This document shows, in pieces, positions 724 to 58,047 of a stretch of 64,000 bases of DNA (position 1 is its first letter; every line of letters starts with the position of its first letter). Source of the stretch: an uncultured Alphaproteobacteria bacterium (GTDB lineage: Bacteria > Pseudomonadota > Alphaproteobacteria > Rickettsiales > JALZUV01); the NCBI GenBank assembly GCA_963837025.1, contig CAWILT010000002.1, forward strand, positions 705,089-769,088, in the 5' to 3' direction. Below the pieces are notes generated by a model. The model was given only the letters and a program-made list of their open reading frames with translations, was not told where the DNA came from and ran no database searches. A program made the position numbers and the translations under genes.

Positions 724-748
724 CTGACCCAAAAAGGAATTTGAATTT

Positions 749-1945
749 GTGGATCATCGTTCCCTTAACAATTTGTCCTTGTGTGCCGGTGTCGGCGGAC
801 TCGACCTCGGCATCCGAGTGGCGCAGCCAAATGCTCGAGCAGTCTGTTTTGTCGAGATCGAAGCCTATGCGTGCGAAATCCTGGCAACGCGCATGGAAGA
901 CAAAAGCCTGGACGAAGCGCCTGTTTGGACGGATTTGCGATCCTTTGACGGCAAGCCATGGCGTGGCATCGTGGATTGCATCACTGCAGGATATCCATGC
1001 CAGCCATTCTCCGTTGCCGGAAAACAAAAAGGCAAAGACGACCCGCGTCACCTCTGGCCAGATGTGTGCAGGATTGTGCGGGAGATACGCCCACGGCTCT
1101 GTTTCTTCGAAAACGTCCCTGGACATTTACGATTGGGGTTTGAACAAGTCCATGATGACCTTCGAAAACTGGGTTACAGCGTTAAGGCAGGCCTGTTCTC
1201 AGCGGCGGAAGTCGGTAGCACTCACAAACGCGAACGCCTCTTCATTTTGGCGTACCGTGAAAGCGACCGAGCCAACGGGTGGCTGTCTGAGCTCAGAGAA
1301 ATTCAAAGAGCGTATGGATGCGGGCATGCCCTTGAGCCTGCGGGATCAGGTGAAGCATCTCTGGCCGACAGTCCGTGTCTCTTCTGCGAATGGCCCGTGT
1401 CAGAAGGAAATCCAGAACAACAATCCGAAATGCCGTCTGGAAGTATCGGTGGTGAATTGGCCAACACCGACGGTGCAAGACTTCAAAAAACGCGGGCCGA
1501 ATTCATCGCAGAAAGGATTGGCGGAGACGTCGGTCAACTGGGCGACGCCGAATACGCTGGATCATCTTCCCGTCAGATCGCCCGAGGCGATGGACAGGAT
1601 GATGGGGCCGAACGGTCAGCGTGCGGGCAGATCCCGTCCGAGCAATTTGCGAGAGCAAATCATGTGGCCAACAGTGACAGCTCAGGATTCCAAGAACAAT
1701 GCGGGGTCGAGCCAATTTGTACGGAACACGAAGCCATTGAATGTGGAAGCTGTTTGCCATTCCCACCCGGACCCGAAGGCGATTGGGACGGAATCCCAAC
1801 CGGTCTTAAACCCGCAATTTGTCGAATGGCTGATGGGCTGGCCAATCGGGTGGACAGAATTCGCGCCTGTGGAAACGGTGTCGTTCCATTGGCTGCCGCT
1901 CATGCGTGGGGCGTTCTTACAACTGCAGCAAATGGAGGAAAATAA
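749..1945 (+). CDS. DNA (cytosine-5)-methyltransferase; the ancestral reading frame appears to be disrupted
   Basis: The frame starting at 749 carries motif I LCAGVGGLDLG, motif IV GYPCQPFS, motif VI FFENVPG, motif VIII RERLFILA and a C-terminal GNGVVP (motif X). The target-recognition and motif-IX-like sequence lies in the +1 frame (ORF 741..1958). See findings. Confidence 0.7.
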   Translation: MDHRSLNNLSLCAGVGGLDLGIRVAQPNARAVCFVEIEAYACEILATRMEDKSLDEAPVWTDLRSFDGKPWRGIVDCITAGYPCQPFSVAGKQKGKDDPRHLWPDVCRIVREIRPRLCFFENVPGHLRLGFEQVHDDLRKLGYSVKAGLFSAAEVGSTHKRERLFILAYRESDRANGWLSELREIQRAYGCGHALEPAGSGEASLADSPCLFCEWPVSEGNPEQQSEMPSGSIGGELANTDGARLQKTRAEFIAERIGGDVGQLGDAEYAGSSSRQIARGDGQDDGAERSACGQIPSEQFARANHVANSDSSGFQEQCGVEPICTEHEAIECGSCLPFPPGPEGDWDGIPTGLKPAICRMADGLANRVDRIRACGNGVVPLAAAHAWGVLTTAANGGK

Positions 1946-31937: not shown

Positions 31938-32034
31938 CTTGGGTCGAGCAGTGGGCGAAATGTCCGTGAATCTGGTCAGGACTGAGAAGTAGCAGCCATA
32001 GCGATTTGCATCTCGGGTCACTGCCGGCCTCTAA
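31938..32034 (+). ncRNA. ffs: Signal recognition particle RNA (4.5S type)
   Basis: Domain-IV signature CUGGUCAGGACUGAGAAGUAGCAGCCAUAGCG. Closing helices GGUCG/CGGCC and GCAGUG/CACUGC. Conserved position directly upstream of dnaX. Confidence 0.75.
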
Positions 32035-32062
32035 CATTCATATAACCTAGGCATCAAGACCC

Positions 32063-38099: not shown

Positions 38100-38173
38100 T
38101 AAATGAATATAGTTTTACTAACGCCTAACGTGAAGTTTCGTTGCTAACTATACTCTTTTTTTCGTAAATATGC

Positions 38174-38202
38174 TTCACATTTATACGTAAGTGAGGCATA
38201 AT
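38174..38202 (+). promoter_or_regulatory. Candidate sigma-70 promoter for ssrA
   Basis: TTCACA (38174-38179), a 17-nt spacer, then CATAAT (38197-38202). Confidence 0.35.
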
Positions 38203-38208
38203 TATATC

Positions 38209-38555
38209 GCTCGCAAAAGCTATGGCGATAAACGTTATTTAGAATAGGCGGACTGGACCCGAGGGCAGTACTCGGCATCTCCACCCAAGGGCATTTACTA
38301 CAGGTTGTATCTGTAAGTTTAAGTGCATTTCGGCGGGGATGAAATAGATTCGACAGACGTAATAAAAAAATGATTTTCGTTCGGCATGATACCACCGCAT
38401 CGGGTCAAACTTTATAGTTGCTAATGATAATTCAGCGACTGTTGCATCTAACGACAATTTTGTCGTAGCTGCTCGTATGGCTGCCTAACGGCACCTAACG
38501 AGTACAGTATGTAAACGCGGTTCGGGGGGCGCCGGGCAACAGGAGTCCCCCCACT
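38209..38555 (+). ncRNA. ssrA: Two-piece (circularly permuted) tmRNA. The acceptor piece runs from about 38209 to 38286 and the coding piece from about 38335 to 38555.
   Basis: T-arm CCGAG-GGCAGUA-CUCGG (38259-38275). Acceptor 3' strand CAUCUCC-A-CC (38276-38285) pairs with GGGGAUG at 38335-38341 and includes the G3:U70 wobble. A D-loop-like AGAUUCGAC follows. The tag ORF begins at GCU 38420 and encodes ANDNSATVASNDNFVVAARMAA, with TAA at 38486-38488. A terminal GGGGGG...CCCCCC hairpin closes the RNA. Confidence 0.85.
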
Positions 38556-43623: not shown

Positions 43624-45852
43624 ATGGCTAAAACTGATAAAACCGAATCTGCTCCCATTCTTCCCGTTGCATTTAAAGATGCGATTGGCGAGCGTTATTT
43701 GGCTTACGCCATGTCCACTATCACCTCGCGCAGTTTGCCCGATGTGCGCGATGGGCTAAAGCCCGTGCATCGCCGATTGCTCTGGGCCATGCTGCAACTA
43801 AAACTCGACCCTTCAAGCGGCTATAAAAAATGTGCGCGTGTGGTGGGTGATGTAATCGGTAAATATCACCCCCATGGTGATACGGCGGTATATGATACCA
43901 TGGTTCGCCTCGCGCAAGATTTTGCCGTGCGCTACCCGCTGGTCGAAGGCCAAGGCAATTTCGGCTCCGTTGATGGCGATAATGCCGCTGCCATGCGTTA
44001 CACCGAAGCCAAATTAACAGCCGTAGCCATGGCGTTGTTAGAAGGTATTCGCGAAAATACCGTTGATTTTCGCCCCACCTATGATGGCGAAGATTCGGAG
44101 CCGATTGTTCTGCCTTCAGCCTTTCCCAATCTGCTAGCCAACGGCTCAGAAGGCATCGCCGTGGGTATGGCCACCTCCATTCCACCGCATAATGCGGGCG
44201 AATTATGCGATGCGTTATTACACCTCATCAAAACCCCTGATGCGCGTATTGAAACATTGGTTGGCAAAGTGCTCGGCCCCGATTTTCCTACGGGCGGTAC
44301 AATTGTTGAGCCTCGCGGAAATATTCTCAAAGCCTACGAAACGGGCAAAGGCAGTTTTCGCACCCGCGCCAAGTGGGAAGTGGAAAAAATGAGCCACGGC
44401 CTGTTTCAAATCATCATTACCGAGATTCCCTATCAGGTGCAAAAGTCACGCTTGCTGGAGAAAATGGCCGAACTTTTCCGCGCGAAGAAGCTGCCGCTGG
44501 TTTCTAATTTTCGTGATGAGTCGGCCGAAGAAATTCGCTTAGTCATTGAGCCTAAATCGCGCCAAGTTGACCCTGAAATGTTGATGGAATCACTATTCAA
44601 AGTCACTGAATTAGAGAACCGTTTTTCACTCAACATGAACGTTTTGGATTCAAAAGGTGTACCGCGCGTGATGAACCTGCGCGAAGTGTTGCAAGAGTTT
44701 TTACAGCACCGCATGCAGGTGCTTACCCGCCGCTCTGAATTTCGCTTAGAAAAAATAGCGCATCGCTTAGAAATTCTTGCTGGATTTCTCATCGCCTACC
44801 TCAATCTTGATGAGGTAATACGCATCATTCGCGAAGAAGATGAACCCAAAAAGATGATGATGGAAAAGTGGAATTTGTCTGATGTGCAGGTGGAAGCAAT
44901 CCTCAATATGCGTTTGCGTCAGTTGCGTAAATTAGAAGAAGTTGAAATTCGCAACGAGCATGATGCGCTTTCGGCTGAACAAGCCGCTCTCATTGAATTG
45001 CTATCATCTGAAGAACTTCGTTGGAATCGTATCAGCGATGAAATTAAAGCAACCAAAGTGGCATTTGGCCAAAAAACCGAACTCGGCAAGCGCCGCACCC
45101 AATTTGCCGATGCACCCACCGATACGGTTATTTCCATCGAAGCCTTTATTGAAAAAGAACCCATCACCGTGCTTTATTCGAAAAAAGGCTGGATTCGCGC
45201 CCTTAAAGGCCACAATCAAACCACGGCCGATTACAAAGAAGGTGATAGCGAGCAATATAGTTTAAACAGCTACACCACCGATCAAATCTTATGTTTCGCA
45301 TCTGATGGCCGATGCTACACCATTAGTGGCGATAAAATATCGCGTGGGCGTGGCCATGGCGAACCCCTTAATTTGATGATTGATATGGGTAGCTCCGTCA
45401 AAATTATCGCGATGACGGTATATGAAGCGGGTAAACGCTACTTGCTGGCATCTACAGCAGGCAAAGGCTTCCTAACCCGCAGCGACGATATGGTCGCTTC
45501 AACCAAAAACGGACGCCAAATTCTCAACACGCCGAAAGATTCACGCGCGATGGTGTTTAGCGAAGTGCCTGCTGATGCTACGCATATTGCCGTAACCGGA
45601 AGCAGCCGCAAGTTACTCATCTTCCCCATTGATCAAATCACCGAGATGAAAAAGGGGCAGGGCGTTACCTTGCAAAAGTTTAAAGATGGTGAATTAACCG
45701 ATGCCAAAGCCATCAATTTAGAGCATGGCCTAAGCTGGGCGCAGGGCGAAAACCGCACCCGCACCGAAACGGATTTAACCACATGGTTAGGCAACCGTGC
45801 AGGCGCAGGCAAATTGCCACCTCAAGGATTCCCACGCGATAATAAGTTTTAA
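43624..45852 (+). CDS. parC: DNA topoisomerase IV subunit A
   Basis: SRSLPDVRDGLKPVHRR, GKYHPHGD and AAMRYTEAKL (catalytic Tyr). The 742-aa length and the lack of a GyrA box favour ParC. Confidence 0.9.
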   Translation: MAKTDKTESAPILPVAFKDAIGERYLAYAMSTITSRSLPDVRDGLKPVHRRLLWAMLQLKLDPSSGYKKCARVVGDVIGKYHPHGDTAVYDTMVRLAQDFAVRYPLVEGQGNFGSVDGDNAAAMRYTEAKLTAVAMALLEGIRENTVDFRPTYDGEDSEPIVLPSAFPNLLANGSEGIAVGMATSIPPHNAGELCDALLHLIKTPDARIETLVGKVLGPDFPTGGTIVEPRGNILKAYETGKGSFRTRAKWEVEKMSHGLFQIIITEIPYQVQKSRLLEKMAELFRAKKLPLVSNFRDESAEEIRLVIEPKSRQVDPEMLMESLFKVTELENRFSLNMNVLDSKGVPRVMNLREVLQEFLQHRMQVLTRRSEFRLEKIAHRLEILAGFLIAYLNLDEVIRIIREEDEPKKMMMEKWNLSDVQVEAILNMRLRQLRKLEEVEIRNEHDALSAEQAALIELLSSEELRWNRISDEIKATKVAFGQKTELGKRRTQFADAPTDTVISIEAFIEKEPITVLYSKKGWIRALKGHNQTTADYKEGDSEQYSLNSYTTDQILCFASDGRCYTISGDKISRGRGHGEPLNLMIDMGSSVKIIAMTVYEAGKRYLLASTAGKGFLTRSDDMVASTKNGRQILNTPKDSRAMVFSEVPADATHIAVTGSSRKLLIFPIDQITEMKKGQGVTLQKFKDGELTDAKAINLEHGLSWAQGENRTRTETDLTTWLGNRAGAGKLPPQGFPRDNKF

Positions 45853-45856
45853 ACGC

Positions 45857-46438
45857 ATGTTTACATTTCATTTGATTACAACGGGCGGCACCATTGACGC
45901 GCAGCCTTATGATGTGGCGCATACGCCAGACGTGGTTACACCGTTGCCCAATAGTCTAGTGCCGCAAATGCTACGCTATCTGGGTTATCACAATTTTGTT
46001 CACACTGCGCTGCCGCCTTTAGATTCGAAAGAGTTTTTATCAAGCGAAGTCGGATTATCTCACTTAATTTCGCACATTATAGCATCTAAGCAACCCACAC
46101 TTATCACCTACGGCACTGATGCCTTGGCTCTCACAGCGGTGGCAGTTTATGAAGCCACTAAACATCAGCAAAATTCTCAAAAAATTGCTTTTTCTTGTGC
46201 AATGACTCCGCTTTCGAATACGCATCAGCCTGATGGAAACTTTAGGTTTGATCAATGTGATGGAACCGCAAATACTCAGCAAGCGCTGCGCATATTAGAA
46301 GATGATTCTTACTCTGCAGGCGTTTACATCAGCGCAAATCGCGGGCAGCTTGTAGCCAGTAATCAGCAATTATCACATGTGCGAAAAGAATATGACACCG
46401 CTTCGGCTGATCAGCGTTACTTCGTATTAGATGCTTAA
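45857..46438 (+). CDS. Stand-alone asparaginase N-terminal-domain-like protein
   Basis: ITTGGTIDA, TYGTDALA and SCAMTPL parallel the asparaginase motifs TGGTIA, HGTDTM and GAMRP. At 193 aa it covers only the N-terminal domain. Confidence 0.55.
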   Translation: MFTFHLITTGGTIDAQPYDVAHTPDVVTPLPNSLVPQMLRYLGYHNFVHTALPPLDSKEFLSSEVGLSHLISHIIASKQPTLITYGTDALALTAVAVYEATKHQQNSQKIAFSCAMTPLSNTHQPDGNFRFDQCDGTANTQQALRILEDDSYSAGVYISANRGQLVASNQQLSHVRKEYDTASADQRYFVLDA

Positions 46439-46497: not shown

Positions 46498-47211
46498 ATG
46501 TGGCTTATGAGCGAATTGGATCTCAACAAATATATCGGCGCGCGTATTCGTAAGAAACGTAAGGCGATGGGCTTAAGCCTACAACAATTAGCTGAAGTGT
46601 TGAAACTATCCACGCAGCAAGTACAAAAATATGAATCAGGCGCTTCTAAAATTTCAGCTGATAGGTTGGCGCTCATCTCACATATTTTCAGCGAGTCCAT
46701 TAGCTATTTTTATTCCGATATTGATTTTAATTCCATCACCATTGGCGAGACATCCAATCCAATCGTTATATCCATGTCGCGCCAGCGTAAATTGCGGCTT
46801 ATGTTAGTCGAAGATAACCCGTCAGATGCCATGTTATTTCAAAAAAGCGCGGAACGTTTGCAAGCGGTGGATTCAATTTTAATTGAACATCATGCTAGCA
46901 AAGTTATTCCTTATTTACTTAACCATCAACAAAACCCAAACCACGAATTGCCCGATATTATTTTCATGGATTTAACCTTATCATCGGGTAGTGGCTTTGA
47001 TTTAATCAAAAAAATTAAAGACGATCATTCATTGCGCCATCTGGTAGTTGTCGTTATTTCAGGAAGCATAAATTGGGATGATATGATGCGCAGTTATCGC
47101 ATGGGTGCTGCTAGTTATATCCTAAAATCCTCTAAAGACAGATCATTAAGTGATACGTTGCAGAATGTTTTAAGCTATTGGACTGAAAGCGTTATTTTAC
47201 CAAGCATGTAG
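46498..47211 (+). CDS. Response regulator with an N-terminal XRE-type HTH and a C-terminal receiver domain
   Basis: HTH segment IGARIRKKRKAMGLSLQQLAEVLKLSTQQVQKYESG, then receiver segment LMLVEDNPSDA...PDIIFMDLTL...VVVISGS...GAASYILK. Confidence 0.8.
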   Translation: MWLMSELDLNKYIGARIRKKRKAMGLSLQQLAEVLKLSTQQVQKYESGASKISADRLALISHIFSESISYFYSDIDFNSITIGETSNPIVISMSRQRKLRLMLVEDNPSDAMLFQKSAERLQAVDSILIEHHASKVIPYLLNHQQNPNHELPDIIFMDLTLSSGSGFDLIKKIKDDHSLRHLVVVVISGSINWDDMMRSYRMGAASYILKSSKDRSLSDTLQNVLSYWTESVILPSM

Positions 47212-47224
47212 GGTGCAGAACGAA

Positions 47225-47476
47225 CTAATTGCGATTAAACACAAATTTAATACGAAGTTTTTTGATTATCCCAATCGTAAATAATAGCGGTGTTAAAACA
47301 AGACAAGCTGGGCAAATATAACCTGCAGAAATTTTGGTCATAGCTCCAAATAATGTCGTGAAAATGCCAGCGCCTAAGAACTGATTCGCTGTCACGTAAG
47401 ATTTATTATTTTCCGTTTCTTGATGCATGCTAACTTTACGTCGTTTTCGCATTAAATAATTAGAAGATGATTTCAT
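47225..47476 (-). CDS. Small putative membrane protein
   Basis: 83-aa ORF with two hydrophobic segments. Support is weak. Confidence 0.3.
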   Translation of the reverse strand: MKSSSNYLMRKRRKVSMHQETENNKSYVTANQFLGAGIFTTLFGAMTKISAGYICPACLVLTPLLFTIGIIKKLRIKFVFNRN

Positions 47477-47546
47477 ACATAATATAGCTATGTTTATTGC
47501 TTATGAACGTACCTTCGCTGAATAAGCAACAAACATTACAATTAAA

Positions 47547-48098
47547 ATGACACGCCCTGTTGAAGAGCAATGCCGCTATTGGATGGCCAAATCGCAAATG
47601 GGCGATAAATTGGCTTACGCACAACTGCTCGCGCATGTGCAGAGCATGGCGCAACGTTATGTAATCTCGCGTTTATCCAACCACGCTGATGCGCATGATG
47701 TGGTGCAAGAAATGTTGCTATCGGTGCATAAAGCACGCGCAACTTATGATGTAAATAAACCATTCTATCCGTGGATGTATGCTATTATCAATTATCGCCT
47801 ACATGATTATTTTCGCCGGCATTATAGAAAGCGCGATCGCGAAGCACCTGAGCTTGATAGTGATAAGGTGGATGATAGCGCCACTAATCCAGAACAATGG
47901 GCAAATGATAAACAATTAACCACAAAACTATTATTGAGTTTAAATGCCAAACAACGCCAAATTGTTGAGATGCTCTATGTTCAAGGCAATTCCGCTCAAG
48001 AGGTATCTAAAGCGCTCAACCTATCCATATCCGATGTGCGCGTAACCGCTCACCGCGCATTAAAAGAACTAAAACAAAAAGCAGAAAAAGTCGCATGA
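47547..48098 (+). CDS. sigF: ECF-type sigma-70 family sigma factor (SigF-like by synteny with NrsF)
   Basis: Region 2 (DAHDVVQEMLLSVHKA...FYPWMYAIINYRLHDYFRR) and region 4 (LNAKQRQIVEMLYVQGNSAQEVSKALNLSISDVRVTAHRAL). The stop overlaps the next gene. Confidence 0.85.
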   Translation: MTRPVEEQCRYWMAKSQMGDKLAYAQLLAHVQSMAQRYVISRLSNHADAHDVVQEMLLSVHKARATYDVNKPFYPWMYAIINYRLHDYFRRHYRKRDREAPELDSDKVDDSATNPEQWANDKQLTTKLLLSLNAKQRQIVEMLYVQGNSAQEVSKALNLSISDVRVTAHRALKELKQKAEKVA

Positions 48099-48727
48099 AT
48101 AATAACAATTTAATCGCCCAATTAGCGGATGATGTAACACCCGTACAGCCCATTAGTATACTGCGCCGCTTGGTGCTCACTTTTTCAGTGTTAATCATGT
48201 ATATTACACTTGTGCCTATGTTGTTTGGTGCGCGCCCCGATTGGGCACAGCAAATGGCCACTTTATCCTATCAGCTAGAGATGGGCATTTCAATTGCACT
48301 CACCTTTAGCGCTGCATTTTTAGCCGTACGGCTGGCAGTTCCCACACAAACGCGTTTCCCTTATGGCTGGCTCATCGGAGTAGCTGCATTAGCCATCGGC
48401 GCAGTAATTGGTTTGCTGGGTGAAGTATCCATGCAAGGCGTGCGCGATTCCTTTGCGTCAAATCATTATTATATTACTGCTGGGGTAATTGCCTTTGCAA
48501 CGCCGGTGGCCGCCGCCCTTTTTATTAGCGTAGCAAAAGGCGCCACCACGCAACCGGCGCTTGCTGGCCTAGCTTCATTACTATCGGCCAGTGCTGCGGG
48601 ACATTTTATCATGCGCACCATCGGCCAATCTAATAATTATGCCGAGGTGCTGCTTTGGTGTTATTCACCCGTGCTGATACTTGCTCTAATTGGTTTTATA
48701 ATGGGTCAAAAATACCTGCGATGGTAA
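48095..48727 (+). CDS. nrsF: DUF1109/NrsF-family membrane anti-sigma factor
   Basis: 210 aa and about six transmembrane segments. N-terminus NLIAQLADDVTPV. Translationally coupled to the ECF sigma gene (ATGA overlap). Confidence 0.75.
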   Translation: MNNNNLIAQLADDVTPVQPISILRRLVLTFSVLIMYITLVPMLFGARPDWAQQMATLSYQLEMGISIALTFSAAFLAVRLAVPTQTRFPYGWLIGVAALAIGAVIGLLGEVSMQGVRDSFASNHYYITAGVIAFATPVAAALFISVAKGATTQPALAGLASLLSASAAGHFIMRTIGQSNNYAEVLLWCYSPVLILALIGFIMGQKYLRW

Positions 48728-48827
48728 TTTCAGATTATTTTTGTAATGAATTCTGTTAAAGTGGCCAAGAACAGAATGTAAGCAGGTGCTTACAAGCATA
48801 CCAAACAAAAAAACTTTGAGAGTTATC

Positions 48828-49142
48828 ATGACAAAAACAAAATTAATTATCCCCGCATTTGCATTGGCCGCTATGGCGAGTGCGGTTGCATTTACTACTA
48901 CCGATGCACAAGCAAAAGAAGGCATGGAAAAATGTTATGGCGTTGCAAAAGCCGGTGCAAACGATTGCGGCAGCGCAACCGGCACGCATAGCTGTGCAGG
49001 CCAAACTGCTTCCGACAATATGTGGGAAGAATGGAAATATGTGGAAACTGGCACGTGCGAAGATGCTGGCGGCCATTTAGAAGCACAGAATCCAGCCGAT
49101 GATCACGACCATGACCATGATGCTGACCACGAAGAAAAATAA
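48828..49142 (+). CDS. DUF2282-type secreted Cys-containing peptide (bufferin BufA1-like RiPP precursor) with a His/Asp-rich tail
   Basis: Sec signal peptide [29 protein letters not shown]. Core [26 protein letters not shown]...GTCED has 4 Cys. Tail is [15 protein letters not shown]. Confidence 0.8.
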
Positions 49143-49160
49143 TTAAAAGCAAATTTTAAA

Positions 49161-49196
49161 AAGGCTGTGCGGTGGCAACATCCACAGCCTTTTTTT
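49161..49196 (+). terminator. Intrinsic terminator or attenuator between the precursor gene and the maturase gene
   Basis: AAGGCTGTG...CACAGCCTT stem followed by seven Ts, ending directly at the ATG at 49197. Confidence 0.65.
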
Positions 49197-50771
49197 ATGA
49201 AAATGAAAGCAGCGATGACAAACACACTACCCACACTCGGTTATGGTTTAGTGCTAAGATCGCAACATTGGGACGCAATTTTGGCATCGCCCAACCACGC
49301 GGTGGATTGGTTTGAGATTATATCAGAAAATTTCATGCATAATTTTGGTTACGCGCGCGATGTTTTAGGTGAAATTGCACGCGCTAAACCAGTGGTTATG
49401 CACGGCGTATCCCTATCAATCGGCAGCAGCGATGCACTTGATTTGGAATATGTCAAAACACTCAAAGCGCTCGCCGATTGGGTGAATCCTCCTTGGATAT
49501 CCGATCATATTTGTTGGACGGGCATCAATCACACCAACACACATGATTTGCTGCCGCTACCCTACACCCGCGATAGTTTGGCAAATTGCGTCGCTAAAAC
49601 GCGGGAGTTTCAATCACGTATGGAGCGGCCATTACTGCTTGAAAACCCATCAAACTATATGGAGTTTGCCGATAACACCCTGACCGAATGGCAGTTCGTA
49701 AACGAGCTTTTAGAACAGGCCGATTGCCATTTGCTGCTAGATATCAATAACGTGTATGTCACCTGCTTTAATCATCGACTAGAGCCTAAAACCTATATTG
49801 ATTCCATTGACCCGAATCGCATCGCGCAAATTCATCTGGCGGGGCATGAACATCATGGCAGCCATTTAATTGATACGCATAATCAACCCGTGCATGATGA
49901 TGTATTGGCGCTCTATCATTACACAATGCAAACCAAAGGTTTCACGTCAACCATGCTAGAATGGGATGCGGATATTCCCAATTTTGCAACCATGCTGAGT
50001 GAGTTGGAGCGTATTAAAACTGCCAATCAAACATTAGATTTGCCTAATTTTTCTACAGCTCATTCGGATGCTACAATATCAAAACCGCTGCCATATCATG
50101 TGCGTATGCAGCAATTTCAACAATGTGTTTTACAACGCAAAGCTCCCGCCGATTGGGTTAAAGATAAGCCTGAATTTTCAAGCAATGCGCAAATGAATGT
50201 CTATCAGTTAGCATATCGCAAACGTTTATTCGATAGCCTGCAAAATCATTTTCCTGAAACATTAAAAGCGATGGGGCAGGAGGATTTTAATCTGGCCGCA
50301 CGCAGCTACATCGAAGCAACCCCATCACAATTTCGCGCGATGGAGCCTTATCTTAATGCGTTTGCCACATTCTTGAAAACCTTTGCTCCTACCTTTGCAA
50401 GCATTGCGCAGACCGAGGCTTCCATGCATCAACTACGCGATAAGCCTCAGCCTTTGCCGCTTACGCCACAGCAATTTGCACAAGCTGCAAATGGCGATTT
50501 TGCAACAATCAATTTACAACTCACCCCCGCTTGCTTGCTCACCCCGCGCGCCGTTTATCTGTGCCAAAAATCTGATATTTTTCGTCAACCCTTAGAGCCA
50601 ATCGAATATGAAACCCTTAAAGCTATTGCCGAAAATGCATCGTTAGAAGATGCAATGCATACGCTTTATGAGCGTGATTTGTGCGATGAAAACTCACTCA
50701 TTCCTACAGTGCAACAAGTGCTAACTACCTTTATGCCGAAAGGATTTTTCATTTTAGCCCCTTCCGGCTAA
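49197..50771 (+). CDS. Fused DUF692 (MNIO, MbnB/BufB-like) and DUF2063 (BufC-like) protein
   Basis: The N-terminal half has WFEIISENFM, HGVSLSIGS, DLLPLPYT, LLLENPSNY, LLLDINNVYV and IAQIHLAGHE...IDTH, which is the DUF692 pattern. The C-terminal half has MQQFQQCVLQ...MNVYQLAYRKRLFDSLQNHFPETLKAMGQEDFNLAARSYIE, which is the DUF2063 pattern. It is a single ORF. Possible starts are 49197, 49203 or 49215. Confidence 0.85.
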   Translation: MKMKAAMTNTLPTLGYGLVLRSQHWDAILASPNHAVDWFEIISENFMHNFGYARDVLGEIARAKPVVMHGVSLSIGSSDALDLEYVKTLKALADWVNPPWISDHICWTGINHTNTHDLLPLPYTRDSLANCVAKTREFQSRMERPLLLENPSNYMEFADNTLTEWQFVNELLEQADCHLLLDINNVYVTCFNHRLEPKTYIDSIDPNRIAQIHLAGHEHHGSHLIDTHNQPVHDDVLALYHYTMQTKGFTSTMLEWDADIPNFATMLSELERIKTANQTLDLPNFSTAHSDATISKPLPYHVRMQQFQQCVLQRKAPADWVKDKPEFSSNAQMNVYQLAYRKRLFDSLQNHFPETLKAMGQEDFNLAARSYIEATPSQFRAMEPYLNAFATFLKTFAPTFASIAQTEASMHQLRDKPQPLPLTPQQFAQAANGDFATINLQLTPACLLTPRAVYLCQKSDIFRQPLEPIEYETLKAIAENASLEDAMHTLYERDLCDENSLIPTVQQVLTTFMPKGFFILAPSG

Positions 50772-50823: not shown

Positions 50824-51177
50824 ATGGCAGAATCCACGCAGTTCCAACCCATTATCACCACCAACCTCACCACTCTAATGGCGGATGGCCAAACCGAATC
50901 TTCCGCGATTGATTTATCCGGAACCACCCTTGCAGCGCTAAGCATACCCGCAGAATTTGAAGGCGCCAGCATCTCACTTAAAGCGGCTATTGCTGCTAAT
51001 GGAAACTTTGTATCCGTTTATGATGCTAAAGGCATTGTGGTTTCTTTTAACGCCGCGGCGAATCGGTTTATTGTTATTGAGCCTGCCTTAATGGCTGGTT
51101 TGCAGCATATAAAACTTGTTTCCAATGTGGCGCAATCGGGTGATGCAACCATCACGCTACTCACTCGCCCCATTTAA
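50824..51177 (+). CDS. Hypothetical protein
   Basis: 117-aa ORF with no recognisable motif. Confidence 0.4.
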   Translation: MAESTQFQPIITTNLTTLMADGQTESSAIDLSGTTLAALSIPAEFEGASISLKAAIAANGNFVSVYDAKGIVVSFNAAANRFIVIEPALMAGLQHIKLVSNVAQSGDATITLLTRPI

Positions 51178-51187
51178 GGTTAATAAT

Positions 51188-51940
51188 ATGAGCTTGCTTA
51201 CTACGCTAAACCCCACACAATCGGCCTTTGATACTCTCGTCCGCCGTCCATCGCTTGAAGTATTTTTCGATGCCATCGCTTCGCCGCGCACGTTAACCAC
51301 AAGCAACCAAGTGCAGCAATGGAACGATATTTCAGGCAACAATAATCACGCGCTAAAAGTTGCTACCGATCCCATGCCCACTTATGTGGCATCTAAAGAT
51401 GGGTTTCCGTCCATCTATAGCGATGGTCAAGCAGGCCGAAAGCTTGATTTTAATCACAGCGTTACAGTGAATGATCCCTTTACCGCCATCGCTTTATTTT
51501 TAGGCGATAATAGCATAAGCGATCCTTCTACTGGTTCATCACTCAATGTGGTGTTTGCTTTTGGGGGTGCCGATGCGAGCAATAACAGCGTGGCGTTGCG
51601 CCAATCGCGCGATAATCTGCGCGATTTAAGTTTTGTTGGCTATGGCGGCGGTTCGCAGTTGGATGACAGTCCCTATAACAGCTTTGAAACTTTTGCCATT
51701 AGTTATGATACCATCAAGGTTAAAATGCATTACGGCAACATACTTGAAAGTGGTAGCAACTATAATGCAGCCGCCACTCGCGTAATGGGAACCGGCCGAT
51801 TATTTAATGAAAGCCCTCAAAATAGTTCTCGTACGGGTATTGGCTGGCTGCGCTGTATGCTTTTATATAAAGAGGCTTTGAGCGACACCACGCGCAATCA
51901 AATTACCTTGGCTCTAAAACAACGCTACGGCGCTGTATAG
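51188..51940 (+). CDS. Hypothetical protein, possibly a LamG-like jelly-roll
   Basis: QQWNDISGNNNHALKVATDPMPTYV...GFPSIYSDG resembles the W-x-D-x-SGNGNHA signature of LamG-type phage and cell-surface proteins. Confidence 0.4.
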   Translation: MSLLTTLNPTQSAFDTLVRRPSLEVFFDAIASPRTLTTSNQVQQWNDISGNNNHALKVATDPMPTYVASKDGFPSIYSDGQAGRKLDFNHSVTVNDPFTAIALFLGDNSISDPSTGSSLNVVFAFGGADASNNSVALRQSRDNLRDLSFVGYGGGSQLDDSPYNSFETFAISYDTIKVKMHYGNILESGSNYNAAATRVMGTGRLFNESPQNSSRTGIGWLRCMLLYKEALSDTTRNQITLALKQRYGAV

Positions 51941-56388: not shown

Positions 56389-58047
56389 ATGGCCGAAAAA
56401 TTTATCTACCACATGCAAGATTTGAAAAAATCCTACACGGGCGGCAAAGAAGTGTTGAAGGGCATTTACCTAAGTTTCTACCCGGGTGCTAAAATTGGCT
56501 TGTTAGGCCCCAATGGCTCTGGTAAATCAACCCTGCTTAAAATTATGGCGGGTGTAGATACCGAATTTGTGGGCGAAGCATGGGCGGCTGATGGCACGAA
56601 AATTGGCTATTTAGAGCAAGAGCCGCACTTAGATGAATCTAAAAACGTGCTCGAAAATATTTTGGAAGGGCTAAAAGATAAAAAGGCTCTGGTGGATCGT
56701 TATAATGAAATTATGATGGATTATAGCGACGATGTGGCCGATGAAGCTGCTGAGTTACAAGATAAAATTGATGCCGCCAACGCGTGGGATTTCGAGCGCG
56801 AAGCACAAATAGCTATGGATGCCTTGCGCACACCCGCTGGCGACAAAGAAGTCACCAATCTTTCAGGTGGTGAGAAGCGCCGAGTGGCCTTATGCAAACT
56901 ACTGCTTGAAAAACCCGATATGCTGTTGCTTGATGAGCCAACTAACCATCTTGATGCCGAATCGGTGGCATGGCTTGAGCATTTCCTCGCCGATTACAAA
57001 GGCACCGTGGTGATGATTACGCATGATAGATATTTTCTCGATAATGTAACAGGCTGGATACTCGAACTCGATAACGGTCATGGCATTCCCTATGAGGGCA
57101 ATTACTCCACTTATTTAGAAGCCAAAGCCAAACGCGTAAGCCAAGAGCAGCGTGAAGAGGGTAACCGTCAGAAAAAGATTGAAGAAGAATTGGAATGGGT
57201 GCGAAGCTCGCCCAAAGCCCGCCAATCAAAATCGAAAGCACGCTTAAAATCTTTCGATGAGTTAGTGCGTAATGCTTCTGAAAAACGCAGTGGAAATTCG
57301 CAAATTATTATTCCCGCAGCGGAGCGTTTAGGCAATAATGTTATTCAAGCCAGTAATGTTGAAAAAGCGTATGGCGAACGCTTGCTGATTGATGATTTAA
57401 GTTTTGATATTCCCCCTGGCGCTATCGTGGGTGTAATCGGCCCTAACGGCGCAGGTAAAACCACGTTATTTAAAATGATAACTGATAATGAAAAGCCTGA
57501 TGCCGGCTCGGTCACTATCGGCGAATCCGTGCAATTAGGTTATATTGATCAATCACGCGATTCGCTTGATGGCTCAAAAACCGTGTTTGAAGAAATTTCG
57601 GGCGGCACCGATATGCTCTATTTAGGCAGAACGGAAATGAAATCGCGCGCCTATTGCTCGGCCTTTAATTTCAAAGGTTCTGACCAACAAAAGAAAGTAG
57701 GGCAACTTTCAGGTGGCGAACGCAACCGTGTGCATCTGGCTAAAATGCTTAAAGAGGGCAATAATGTTATCATGCTCGATGAGCCAACCAACGATTTAGA
57801 TATTGAAACGCTGCGTGCGCTGGAAGAAGCTTTGTTGGAATTTGCAGGCTGCGCCATTATCATCTCGCATGATAGATGGTTTTTAGATCGCATCGCCACG
57901 CATATTTTAGCATTTGAAGGCAATAGCCATGTGGAATGGTTCGAAGGTAACTTTGCCGATTATGAAGCCGATTTTGAGCGCCGTTACGGCCACAAGTTTG
58001 AGCCGCGCGCCATTAAATATAAACCACTCGAACGCAAAGCGGGCTAA
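56389..58047 (+). CDS. ettA: ABC-F translational throttle protein EttA
   Basis: 552 aa with two cassettes (GPNGSGKST and GPNGAGKTT), LSGGE twice, and an EttA-type arm and linker. Confidence 0.92.

Follow-up and report, generated by a model that had tools for sequence, protein, structure and literature searches.

Does the gene group at positions 47547-50771 of a 64,000-nucleotide stretch from an uncultured alphaproteobacterium (contig CAWILT010000002.1 of assembly GCA_963837025.1; this whole stretch is referred to here as the window) represent a new kind of metal-homeostasis system, or does it belong to a known family? The first-pass annotation of this DNA had read the gene order as extracytoplasmic function (ECF) sigma factor, DUF1109, DUF2282, DUF692 and DUF2063, had matched it to the organisation of the SigF regulon and of bufferin clusters, and had proposed a variant, uncharacterised system. 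On the basis of current results, the locus is another member of the known bufferin family, a Buf1 cluster of described organisation. More specifically, we estimate a probability of about 0.8, judging from family profiles, gene order and promoter motifs, that it is a cluster for a Buf1-type bufferin, that is, a copper-binding peptide made on ribosomes and modified after translation (RiPP) carrying 5-thiooxazoles, wired to its own ECF sigma/NrsF pair. The metal-homeostasis RiPP cluster proposed earlier was therefore real, but the three differences said to set it apart (no following DoxX gene, a single cysteine in NrsF and fused maturation proteins) were mostly ordinary, and the organisation had already been described. 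The locus adds one member to the bufferins, a bacterial defence against copper that was described recently and is very widespread.

Four co-oriented open reading frames (ORFs) fill the region and encode, in this order, the ECF sigma factor, the membrane anti-sigma factor NrsF (DUF1109), the BufA1 precursor (DUF2282) and a fused MNIO-DUF2063 maturase. Family calls were made by comparing profile scores with curated Pfam and NCBIfam cut-offs, and the DUF2282, MNIO, DUF2063 and DUF1109 assignments were all supported, with every family profile scoring above its Pfam cut-off (Table 1). Thus, the gene order given before was borne out, and these scores, together with promoter motifs of the Caulobacter SigF type, upheld the proposed match to SigF-regulon and bufferin clusters. 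A small membrane-protein gene with a CPAC motif, together with its SigF-type promoter, goes beyond the earlier description as a sixth gene of the unit. The Buf1 core consists of a precursor, an MNIO, a DUF2063 protein and DoxX, and Buf1 clusters are listed as having sigma/NrsF genes among their features (Antoine et al., PMC12452194). The basic picture of the cluster is unaffected by its side features, which are the WCY-type NrsF, the CPAC protein, the putative attenuator, the changed -10 element and the tail of the precursor.

Table 1. Features of the bufferin locus in the window and positions of the small CPAC gene in related loci
Feature	Locus	Position	Strand	Evidence or remark
ECF sigma factor	Window	47547-48098	+	Sigma70_r2 46.8 bits; r4_2 40.5 bits; Sigma70_ECF; TIGR02937 85 bits vs 42.9 cut-off
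NrsF/DUF1109 membrane anti-sigma factor	Window	48095-48727	+	PF06532 96 bits vs 26.8 cut-off
BufA1/DUF2282 precursor	Window	ORF 48786-49142; likely ATG 48828	+	PF10048 75.2 bits vs 22.4 cut-off
MNIO-DUF2063 fusion	Window	ORF 49167-50771	+	PF05114 325 bits; NF050167 (MNIO_BufB) 321.7 vs 310; PF09836 48.7 vs 27.2
Small CPAC-motif membrane protein	Window	47225-47476	-	Likely true start 47452 or 47428
SigF-type promoter GTAATG-N16-CGAA	Window	47514-47539	-	Exact motif match; faces small CPAC gene
bufA promoter-like site GTAATG-N16-CCAA	Window	48743-48768	+	One-mismatch motif match
Terminator-like hairpin, bufA/maturase gap	Window	49158-49196	+	Folding; position kept in relatives
Small CPAC gene	L001	3658-3870	-	
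Small CPAC gene	L002	3525-3722	-	
Small CPAC gene	L085	7001-7234		
Small CPAC gene	L086	about 745-900	-	

The closest known system is buf1 of Caulobacter vibrioides (bufA1B1C1D1, CCNA_03363-03366 / CC3254-CC3257) with its adjacent sigF-nrsF. Both systems have a DUF2282 precursor with a Sec signal and four cysteines, a BufB-equivalog MNIO, a DUF2063 partner, adjoining genes for an ECF sigma factor and NrsF, and a promoter motif of the GTAACC-N16-CGAA type. In contrast with C. vibrioides, BufB and BufC form one polypeptide in the window, DoxX/BufD is missing, the sigma-nrsF genes lie directly upstream of bufA on the same strand, an extra small CPAC membrane protein is encoded, the precursor carries a His/Asp tail, and NrsF has no equivalents of C131 and C181. 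DoxX/BufD is the last gene of the C. vibrioides operon, whereas in close relatives of the window it lies upstream and is divergently transcribed. Caulobacter BufB1 and BufC1 place 5-thiooxazoles on CysII and CysIII (-4 Da each); with a CysI-CysIV disulfide the total change is -10 Da, and the bufferin is exported by Sec, binds copper and is encoded in an operon under SigF control (Leprevost et al., PMC11626156). The locus also resembles other MNIO-PME1 thiooxazole metallophore clusters, the 'captophorins' (oxazolin/HvfABC, fontiphorin and gonophorin), in having an MNIO with a DUF2063 partner (DUF2063-RRE in the captophorins, the RRE being putative here), a Cys-rich exported precursor and a link to stress or copper. 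However, captophorin precursors are EGKCG or Lys-Cys repeat peptides whereas that of the window is a DUF2282 protein, and the window MNIO scores under the HvfB cut-off (229.8 bits vs 360).

We compared the window with five related loci, taking the genomic context from homologues. In L001 (GCA_029252805.1), DoxX and then the small CPAC gene run divergently from sigma, NrsF, BufA1 and BufBC; the arrangement is the same in L002 (a Joint Genome Institute metagenome) and L085 (GCA_964654855.1), and of the same type in L086 (a Logan contig), which has different downstream neighbours and the closest BufBC homologue. The fifth, L087 (GCA_028281385.1), has DoxX divergent from BufA1 and BufBC, with no adjacent sigma/NrsF genes and no small CPAC gene detected. 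The first four loci share with the window the gene order, the fusion (BufBC identity 52-58%), a WCY-type NrsF, two promoters and a hairpin. They differ from it in having DoxX before the small CPAC gene, CGAA as the bufA -10 element and no His/Asp tail. The wider neighbourhood is also syntenic between the window and L001, L002 and L085 (parC ... 117-aa, 249-aa, dihydrodipicolinate synthase (DHDPS), SmpB). The closest maturase homologues were named as 'Rickettsiales bacterium' metagenome-assembled genomes (MAGs). The window itself carries a two-piece (permuted) alphaproteobacterial transfer-messenger RNA (38170-38555, +; 210 bits) and a small signal recognition particle RNA (31939-32035, +), and hence is alphaproteobacterial.

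How might such a cluster be controlled? The binding sequence of Caulobacter SigF is GTAACC-N16-CGAA (PMC3511200). Each of the five relatives contained two GTAAYK-N16-CGAA motifs, one before bufA and one on the opposite strand before DoxX, where chance would give about 0.16 per locus; the divergent motif had an equal position and strand in all five. Because L087 has both motifs without an adjacent sigma gene, they appear to be real regulon promoters. Exact matches in the 64-kb window numbered two (0.25 expected); one of them, at 57353-57378, lies within the ORF of an ABC-F ATPase and was taken as chance. The -10 element of bufA in the window reads CCAA, a G-to-C change compared with the CGAA of all five relatives and of the Caulobacter consensus. 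It should be noted that this could reflect either a genuine change of regulation or an error in sequencing.

The sigma factor is SigF-like and probably of group ECF16. Its ORF overlaps that of nrsF by 4 bp (ATGA), by which the two genes are predicted to be translationally coupled. The gap 5' of the sigma gene measures ~70 bp and is occupied by the divergent promoter. The same bases contain TTCGCT-N17-TACAAT on the other strand (window 47514-47546, +). This site stops 4 nt short of the sigma ATG, and a ribosome-binding site is lacking; a similar TTACAA element lies 4-6 nt 5' of this ATG in L001, L002 and L086 (a related TTACAT in L085). Such an arrangement is suggestive of a housekeeping promoter that overlaps the divergent one and of a sigma mRNA almost without a leader. 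In addition, a near-perfect palindrome, GTAAGCAGGTGCTTAC (window 48777-48794), was observed in the presumed 5' leader of bufA, after the promoter-like site and ahead of the start codon, where it might form a leader stem-loop or serve as an operator.

The BufA precursor has the features expected of an exported, four-cysteine Buf1 peptide. Residues 1-29, read from the sequence, resemble a signal peptide with a basic MTKTK start, a hydrophobic stretch and an AQA end, and this layout is conserved in homologues. The core cysteines (Cys36, Cys47, Cys56 and Cys77) align with the four cysteines of ~30 homologues. Unique among these ~30 proteins is a C-terminal His/Asp tail, which is encoded by short GACCAT-type repeats at 49098-49139 (+); the closest homologue, BufA of L086, has a Met-rich PDMMMKK ending instead.

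The maturase combines BufB (MNIO, ~residues 1-290) and BufC (DUF2063 and a C-terminal domain, ~residues 300-524). Since GTG 49167 sits inside the stem of the hairpin described below, translation likely starts at ATG 49197, 49203 or 49215, and such a later start agrees with relatives of 514-519 residues. The fusion of the maturation proteins had been presented as a distinguishing feature; one ORF does carry both MNIO and DUF2063, but this is widespread. All of the best 120 database matches to the maturase were MNIO-DUF2063 fusions of ~490-600 residues, which indicates that the fusion is common, and they came from MAGs of Rickettsiales, Rhodospirillales, other Alphaproteobacteria, Bdellovibrionales and Chitinophagales. 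A profile scan of genome contigs gave mostly non-fused, non-Buf1 MNIO loci among the matches listed. Our literature searches found no mention of MNIO-DUF2063 fusions, an absence that is no proof of novelty.

An AlphaFold2 model of the maturase, built with 17 fused homologues, was of high confidence (predicted local distance difference test (pLDDT) 91.3; predicted template-modelling score (pTM) 0.88). Its N-terminal half superposes on 3BWW (template-modelling (TM) score 0.85), TglH and MbnB. The C-terminal part, a candidate RRE-type domain, was also modelled confidently, with strands at 440-465 and helices at 468-512; the fold search with the whole protein was dominated by the TIM-barrel half. 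The residues H69, D103/H104, E149, D182, N185, H213/H217, D226, H228 and E255 are invariant in the 17 fused homologues and resemble the iron-ligand pattern of MNIO enzymes.

Between bufA and the maturase gene lies a hairpin whose stem, GGCTGTG/CACAGCC, spans 49163-49189; TTTTTTT occupies the next positions, 49190-49196. Its folding energy is ~-22 kcal/mol (z = -3.8), and none of 200 shuffled sequences folded as well. A GC-rich bufA-bufBC hairpin is found in all six loci, with its position kept although the sequences differ (-19 to -33 kcal/mol). In the window, L001, L085, L086 and L087 it is succeeded by a T-run, and the T tract of L002 is weak. This element is likely a partial terminator or attenuator setting a high ratio of precursor to enzyme. 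A partial terminator between precursor and enzyme genes is a design known from other RiPP operons. The two divergent SigF-type promoters and the hairpin after the precursor gene, present across related loci, suggest how the levels of precursor and enzyme are set.

The missing DoxX gene had been regarded as a meaningful variation, with emphasis on its absence downstream. There is indeed none downstream, and tblastn with the DoxX proteins of the relatives found nothing in the full 64-kb window (best E = 1.7). However, the place examined earlier was not the place where relatives keep this gene: in all five, DoxX lies upstream of the cluster, divergently transcribed behind its own SigF-type promoter. 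The window retains the divergent promoter and the small CPAC gene, with DoxX alone gone, and is the sole DoxX-less locus of the six. Because DoxX of this clade sits upstream and divergent, its absence here is best read as a lineage-specific deletion and, on present evidence, appears to be the recent loss of a dispensable gene. DoxX/BufD of Caulobacter is needed neither for modification nor for copper protection, and the buf2 cluster has no DoxX (PMC11626156). In addition, DoxX was nearby in only about half of 12 BufA1 loci sampled among the matches listed, a rough estimate obtained with home-made hidden Markov models. Thus, the absence of DoxX can no longer be taken as a meaningful variant.

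The small CPAC gene follows DoxX directly in four of the five relatives, as the second gene of a DoxX-small operon (the two overlap by 4 bp in L085), and none was detected in L087. The protein is hydrophobic and 65-83 aa long across members, with an invariant GYxCPACLxLTP motif that reads GYICPACLVLTP in the window. Identity to the proteins of L001 and L002 was 46% over the full alignment and 50-59% in tblastn local alignments. It belongs to no Pfam or PHROG family, and only four matches were found in a collection of 5.8 billion proteins, plus an uncalled ORF in L086. In the window the gene has lost its partner for translational coupling and has no obvious ribosome-binding site. As a co-transcript of DoxX in relatives, this protein may help to explain the role of DoxX in bufferin clusters.

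The most unusual part of the cluster is the rearrangement of the probable metal-binding residues of NrsF. When 1.84 billion representatives were searched with phmmer, we obtained 547 matches at E <= 0.001, from which 146 full-length representatives were aligned with the window protein (147 sequences in total). Columns 195 and 246 were anchored on three 214-residue members that have Cys at exactly 131 and 181, in agreement with the numbering of C131 and C181 of Caulobacter; by cluster look-up none of these anchors is Caulobacter NrsF itself. The single cysteine noted in the first-pass annotation was counted correctly (C189 in LLWCYSP), but the difference was understated: C189 is neither of the Caulobacter cysteines, whose columns read I127 and G177 in the window. 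Column 195 contains Cys in 87% of the whole set and in all 123 canonical members, and Ile, Val, Met, Thr or Gly in the 17 members of the WCY group. Column 258, that of C189, has His in 85% of the whole set (the W-H-Y motif), with His in 123 of 123 canonical and Cys in 17 of 17 WCY members. These two columns co-vary near-perfectly, 123 of the 147 sequences having Cys...His and 17 (the window protein and its relatives) non-Cys...Cys. The His four residues before the W-H-Y His (column 253; E184 in the window) is present in 111 of the 123 canonical members and replaced by mostly acidic or amide residues (Asp, Asn or Glu) in the 17 WCY members. At column 192 (H124) Gly is the most common residue in the canonical group (42 members) and His occurs in 12 of the 17 WCY members, and column 246 has Cys in 37% and Glu in 52% of the whole set.

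The window NrsF belongs to a distinct WCY subfamily, whose members have His/acid/Cys in place of what is probably a Cys/His/His ligand set; we infer that these residues form one site. As the ligand set is replaced, the inducing signal may differ from that of Caulobacter. The WCY subfamily is not tied to the fusion, since in L008 the NrsF that goes with a fused BufBC is of the canonical WHY type, and L089 has a WCY NrsF away from buf genes. The exchange of Cys...His for Ile/Val...Cys points to candidate sensor residues in the NrsF family; in our literature searches, no study of the NrsF mechanism went further than the two cysteines. A tblastn search of plasmids with the window NrsF gave no match; with canonical NrsF it gave only partial matches in Burkholderia and did not recover the S. 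meliloti orthologue.

Taken together, the features of NrsF and of the small protein allow a tentative proposal in two parts. NrsF proteins might be direct metal sensors, with a site of three residues inside the membrane, Cys in one predicted segment and His-x4-His (its second His that of W-H-Y) in another, which the WCY subfamily would have rebuilt as His/acid/Cys with altered specificity; DoxX of this clade might work with a very rare, hitherto unrecognised, SigF-controlled CPAC membrane peptide that is able to persist and function without it. We consider both parts together possible rather than probable. If true, they would provide a handle on the inactivation of ECF16 anti-sigma factors and on the function of DoxX.

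For the cluster as a whole, we infer a mechanism that has been demonstrated in Caulobacter. Periplasmic or membrane metal stress would inactivate NrsF and free the sigma factor, which would take RNA polymerase to the two divergent SigF-type promoters. One of them would drive the small CPAC membrane protein, whose former operon partner DoxX has apparently been deleted, and the other bufA. Most bufA transcripts would end at the hairpin and some would read into the maturase gene, so that precursor would be abundant and enzyme scarce. The fused BufB-BufC would turn the central Cys47 and Cys56 into 5-thiooxazoles in the cytoplasm, and the Sec signal peptide would then export the product, with cleavage after AQA. 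A disulfide would join Cys36 and Cys77, and the periplasmic bufferin would sequester copper, with a possible addition to its binding capacity by the His/Asp tail.

Several observations weigh against a functional copper bufferin under control of its own sigma/NrsF pair. The window NrsF has neither of the two cysteines important in Caulobacter and reaches only 41.6 bits with the NCBIfam NrsF equivalog, far under the cut-off of 300. A search for sequencing runs that contain the region gave none. The CCAA -10 element may weaken SigF-dependent induction of bufA, and the loss of DoxX combined with this promoter change could mean that the system is decaying. In such a scenario, selection would have slackened in a genome that is reduced or host-associated, and the bufferin would have ceased to be induced by stress or would hardly be made. 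Both changes are confined to the window among the six related loci, the -10 change affecting an otherwise invariant CGAA, and the small CPAC gene without its coupling partner and an obvious ribosome-binding site would fit as well. However, the five remaining ORFs are intact and of full length, the residues invariant among MNIO proteins are retained, the divergent promoter is still exact and the hairpin is intact; the precursor has acquired a metal-binding-like tail rather than lost one, and the gene that is missing is dispensable in Caulobacter. We therefore regard decay as unlikely. It is still less probable, in our opinion, that the sigma/NrsF genes merely adjoin the cluster, with bufA expressed from a housekeeping promoter. 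A sigma-70-like CTGATA-N17-TATAAT at 48674-48702, just upstream of the nrsF-bufA gap, and the imperfect SigF-type -10 element of bufA would agree with this idea, but sigma-70-like sites in the region are at the chance level (13 found vs 13.8 expected), five relatives have the SigF-type motif at the equivalent place, and the sigma-NrsF-BufA1 order is conserved in relatives and is a described Buf1 organisation (PMC12452194).

A further explanation concerns the metal rather than the integrity of the system: a functional cluster might respond to, and buffer, not copper but another metal or stress (Zn, Ni, Co or Cd, or redox stress, for instance), which would be compatible with a sigma/NrsF-controlled Buf1 cluster. 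The change of the NrsF ligand columns from Cys/His/His to His/acid/Cys and the (His-Asp)n tail, typical of borderline-metal binding and unique to the window, are in line with this, as is the initial link of Caulobacter SigF with Cr and Cd (PMC3511200); bufferins may also serve further metals (PMC12452194). On the other hand, in its core BufA1 domain and its BufB equivalog the locus agrees with the copper-binding Buf1, and the Met-rich tail of the closest relative (PDMMMKK) is a motif of the copper(I) type. Such a different metal or stress thus seems doubtful to us, and the reading of the locus as a copper-binding Buf1 cluster with its own sigma/NrsF pair is preferred.

The genes that follow the cluster had been described as unrelated hypotheticals, and this description holds. 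Two of them, at 50824-51177 (+; 117 aa) and 51188-51940 (+; 249-250 aa), are conserved in L001, L002 and L085, but they are not beside BufBC in L086, L087 and L004 and have no Pfam family. The larger protein has a weak match to the phage 'virion structural protein' phrog_10356 (E = 2.6e-4). On these three grounds we rejected both genes as members of the cluster.

Some other neighbouring genes were also observed. On the 5' side, the window encodes a protein of unusual make-up (46498-47211, +), in which an HTH_3 (Xre-type) DNA-binding domain at the N-terminus is fused to a response-regulator receiver domain at the C-terminus; it is kept beside the cluster in L001 and L085, and L001 has an extra histidine kinase and a second receiver gene near it, both of which are missing in the window. 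Further upstream, a 213-aa protein (45797-46438, +) matches the N-terminal domain of asparaginase only (PF00710, E = 5.8e-8), and L001 carries a 188-aa counterpart. Finally, the fused BufBC homologue of L004 (P0004, 56% identity) has no BufA1 gene and is preceded by a Cys-rich ORF of 166 aa without a known family (512-1012, +), which is perhaps another substrate, or else perhaps spurious.

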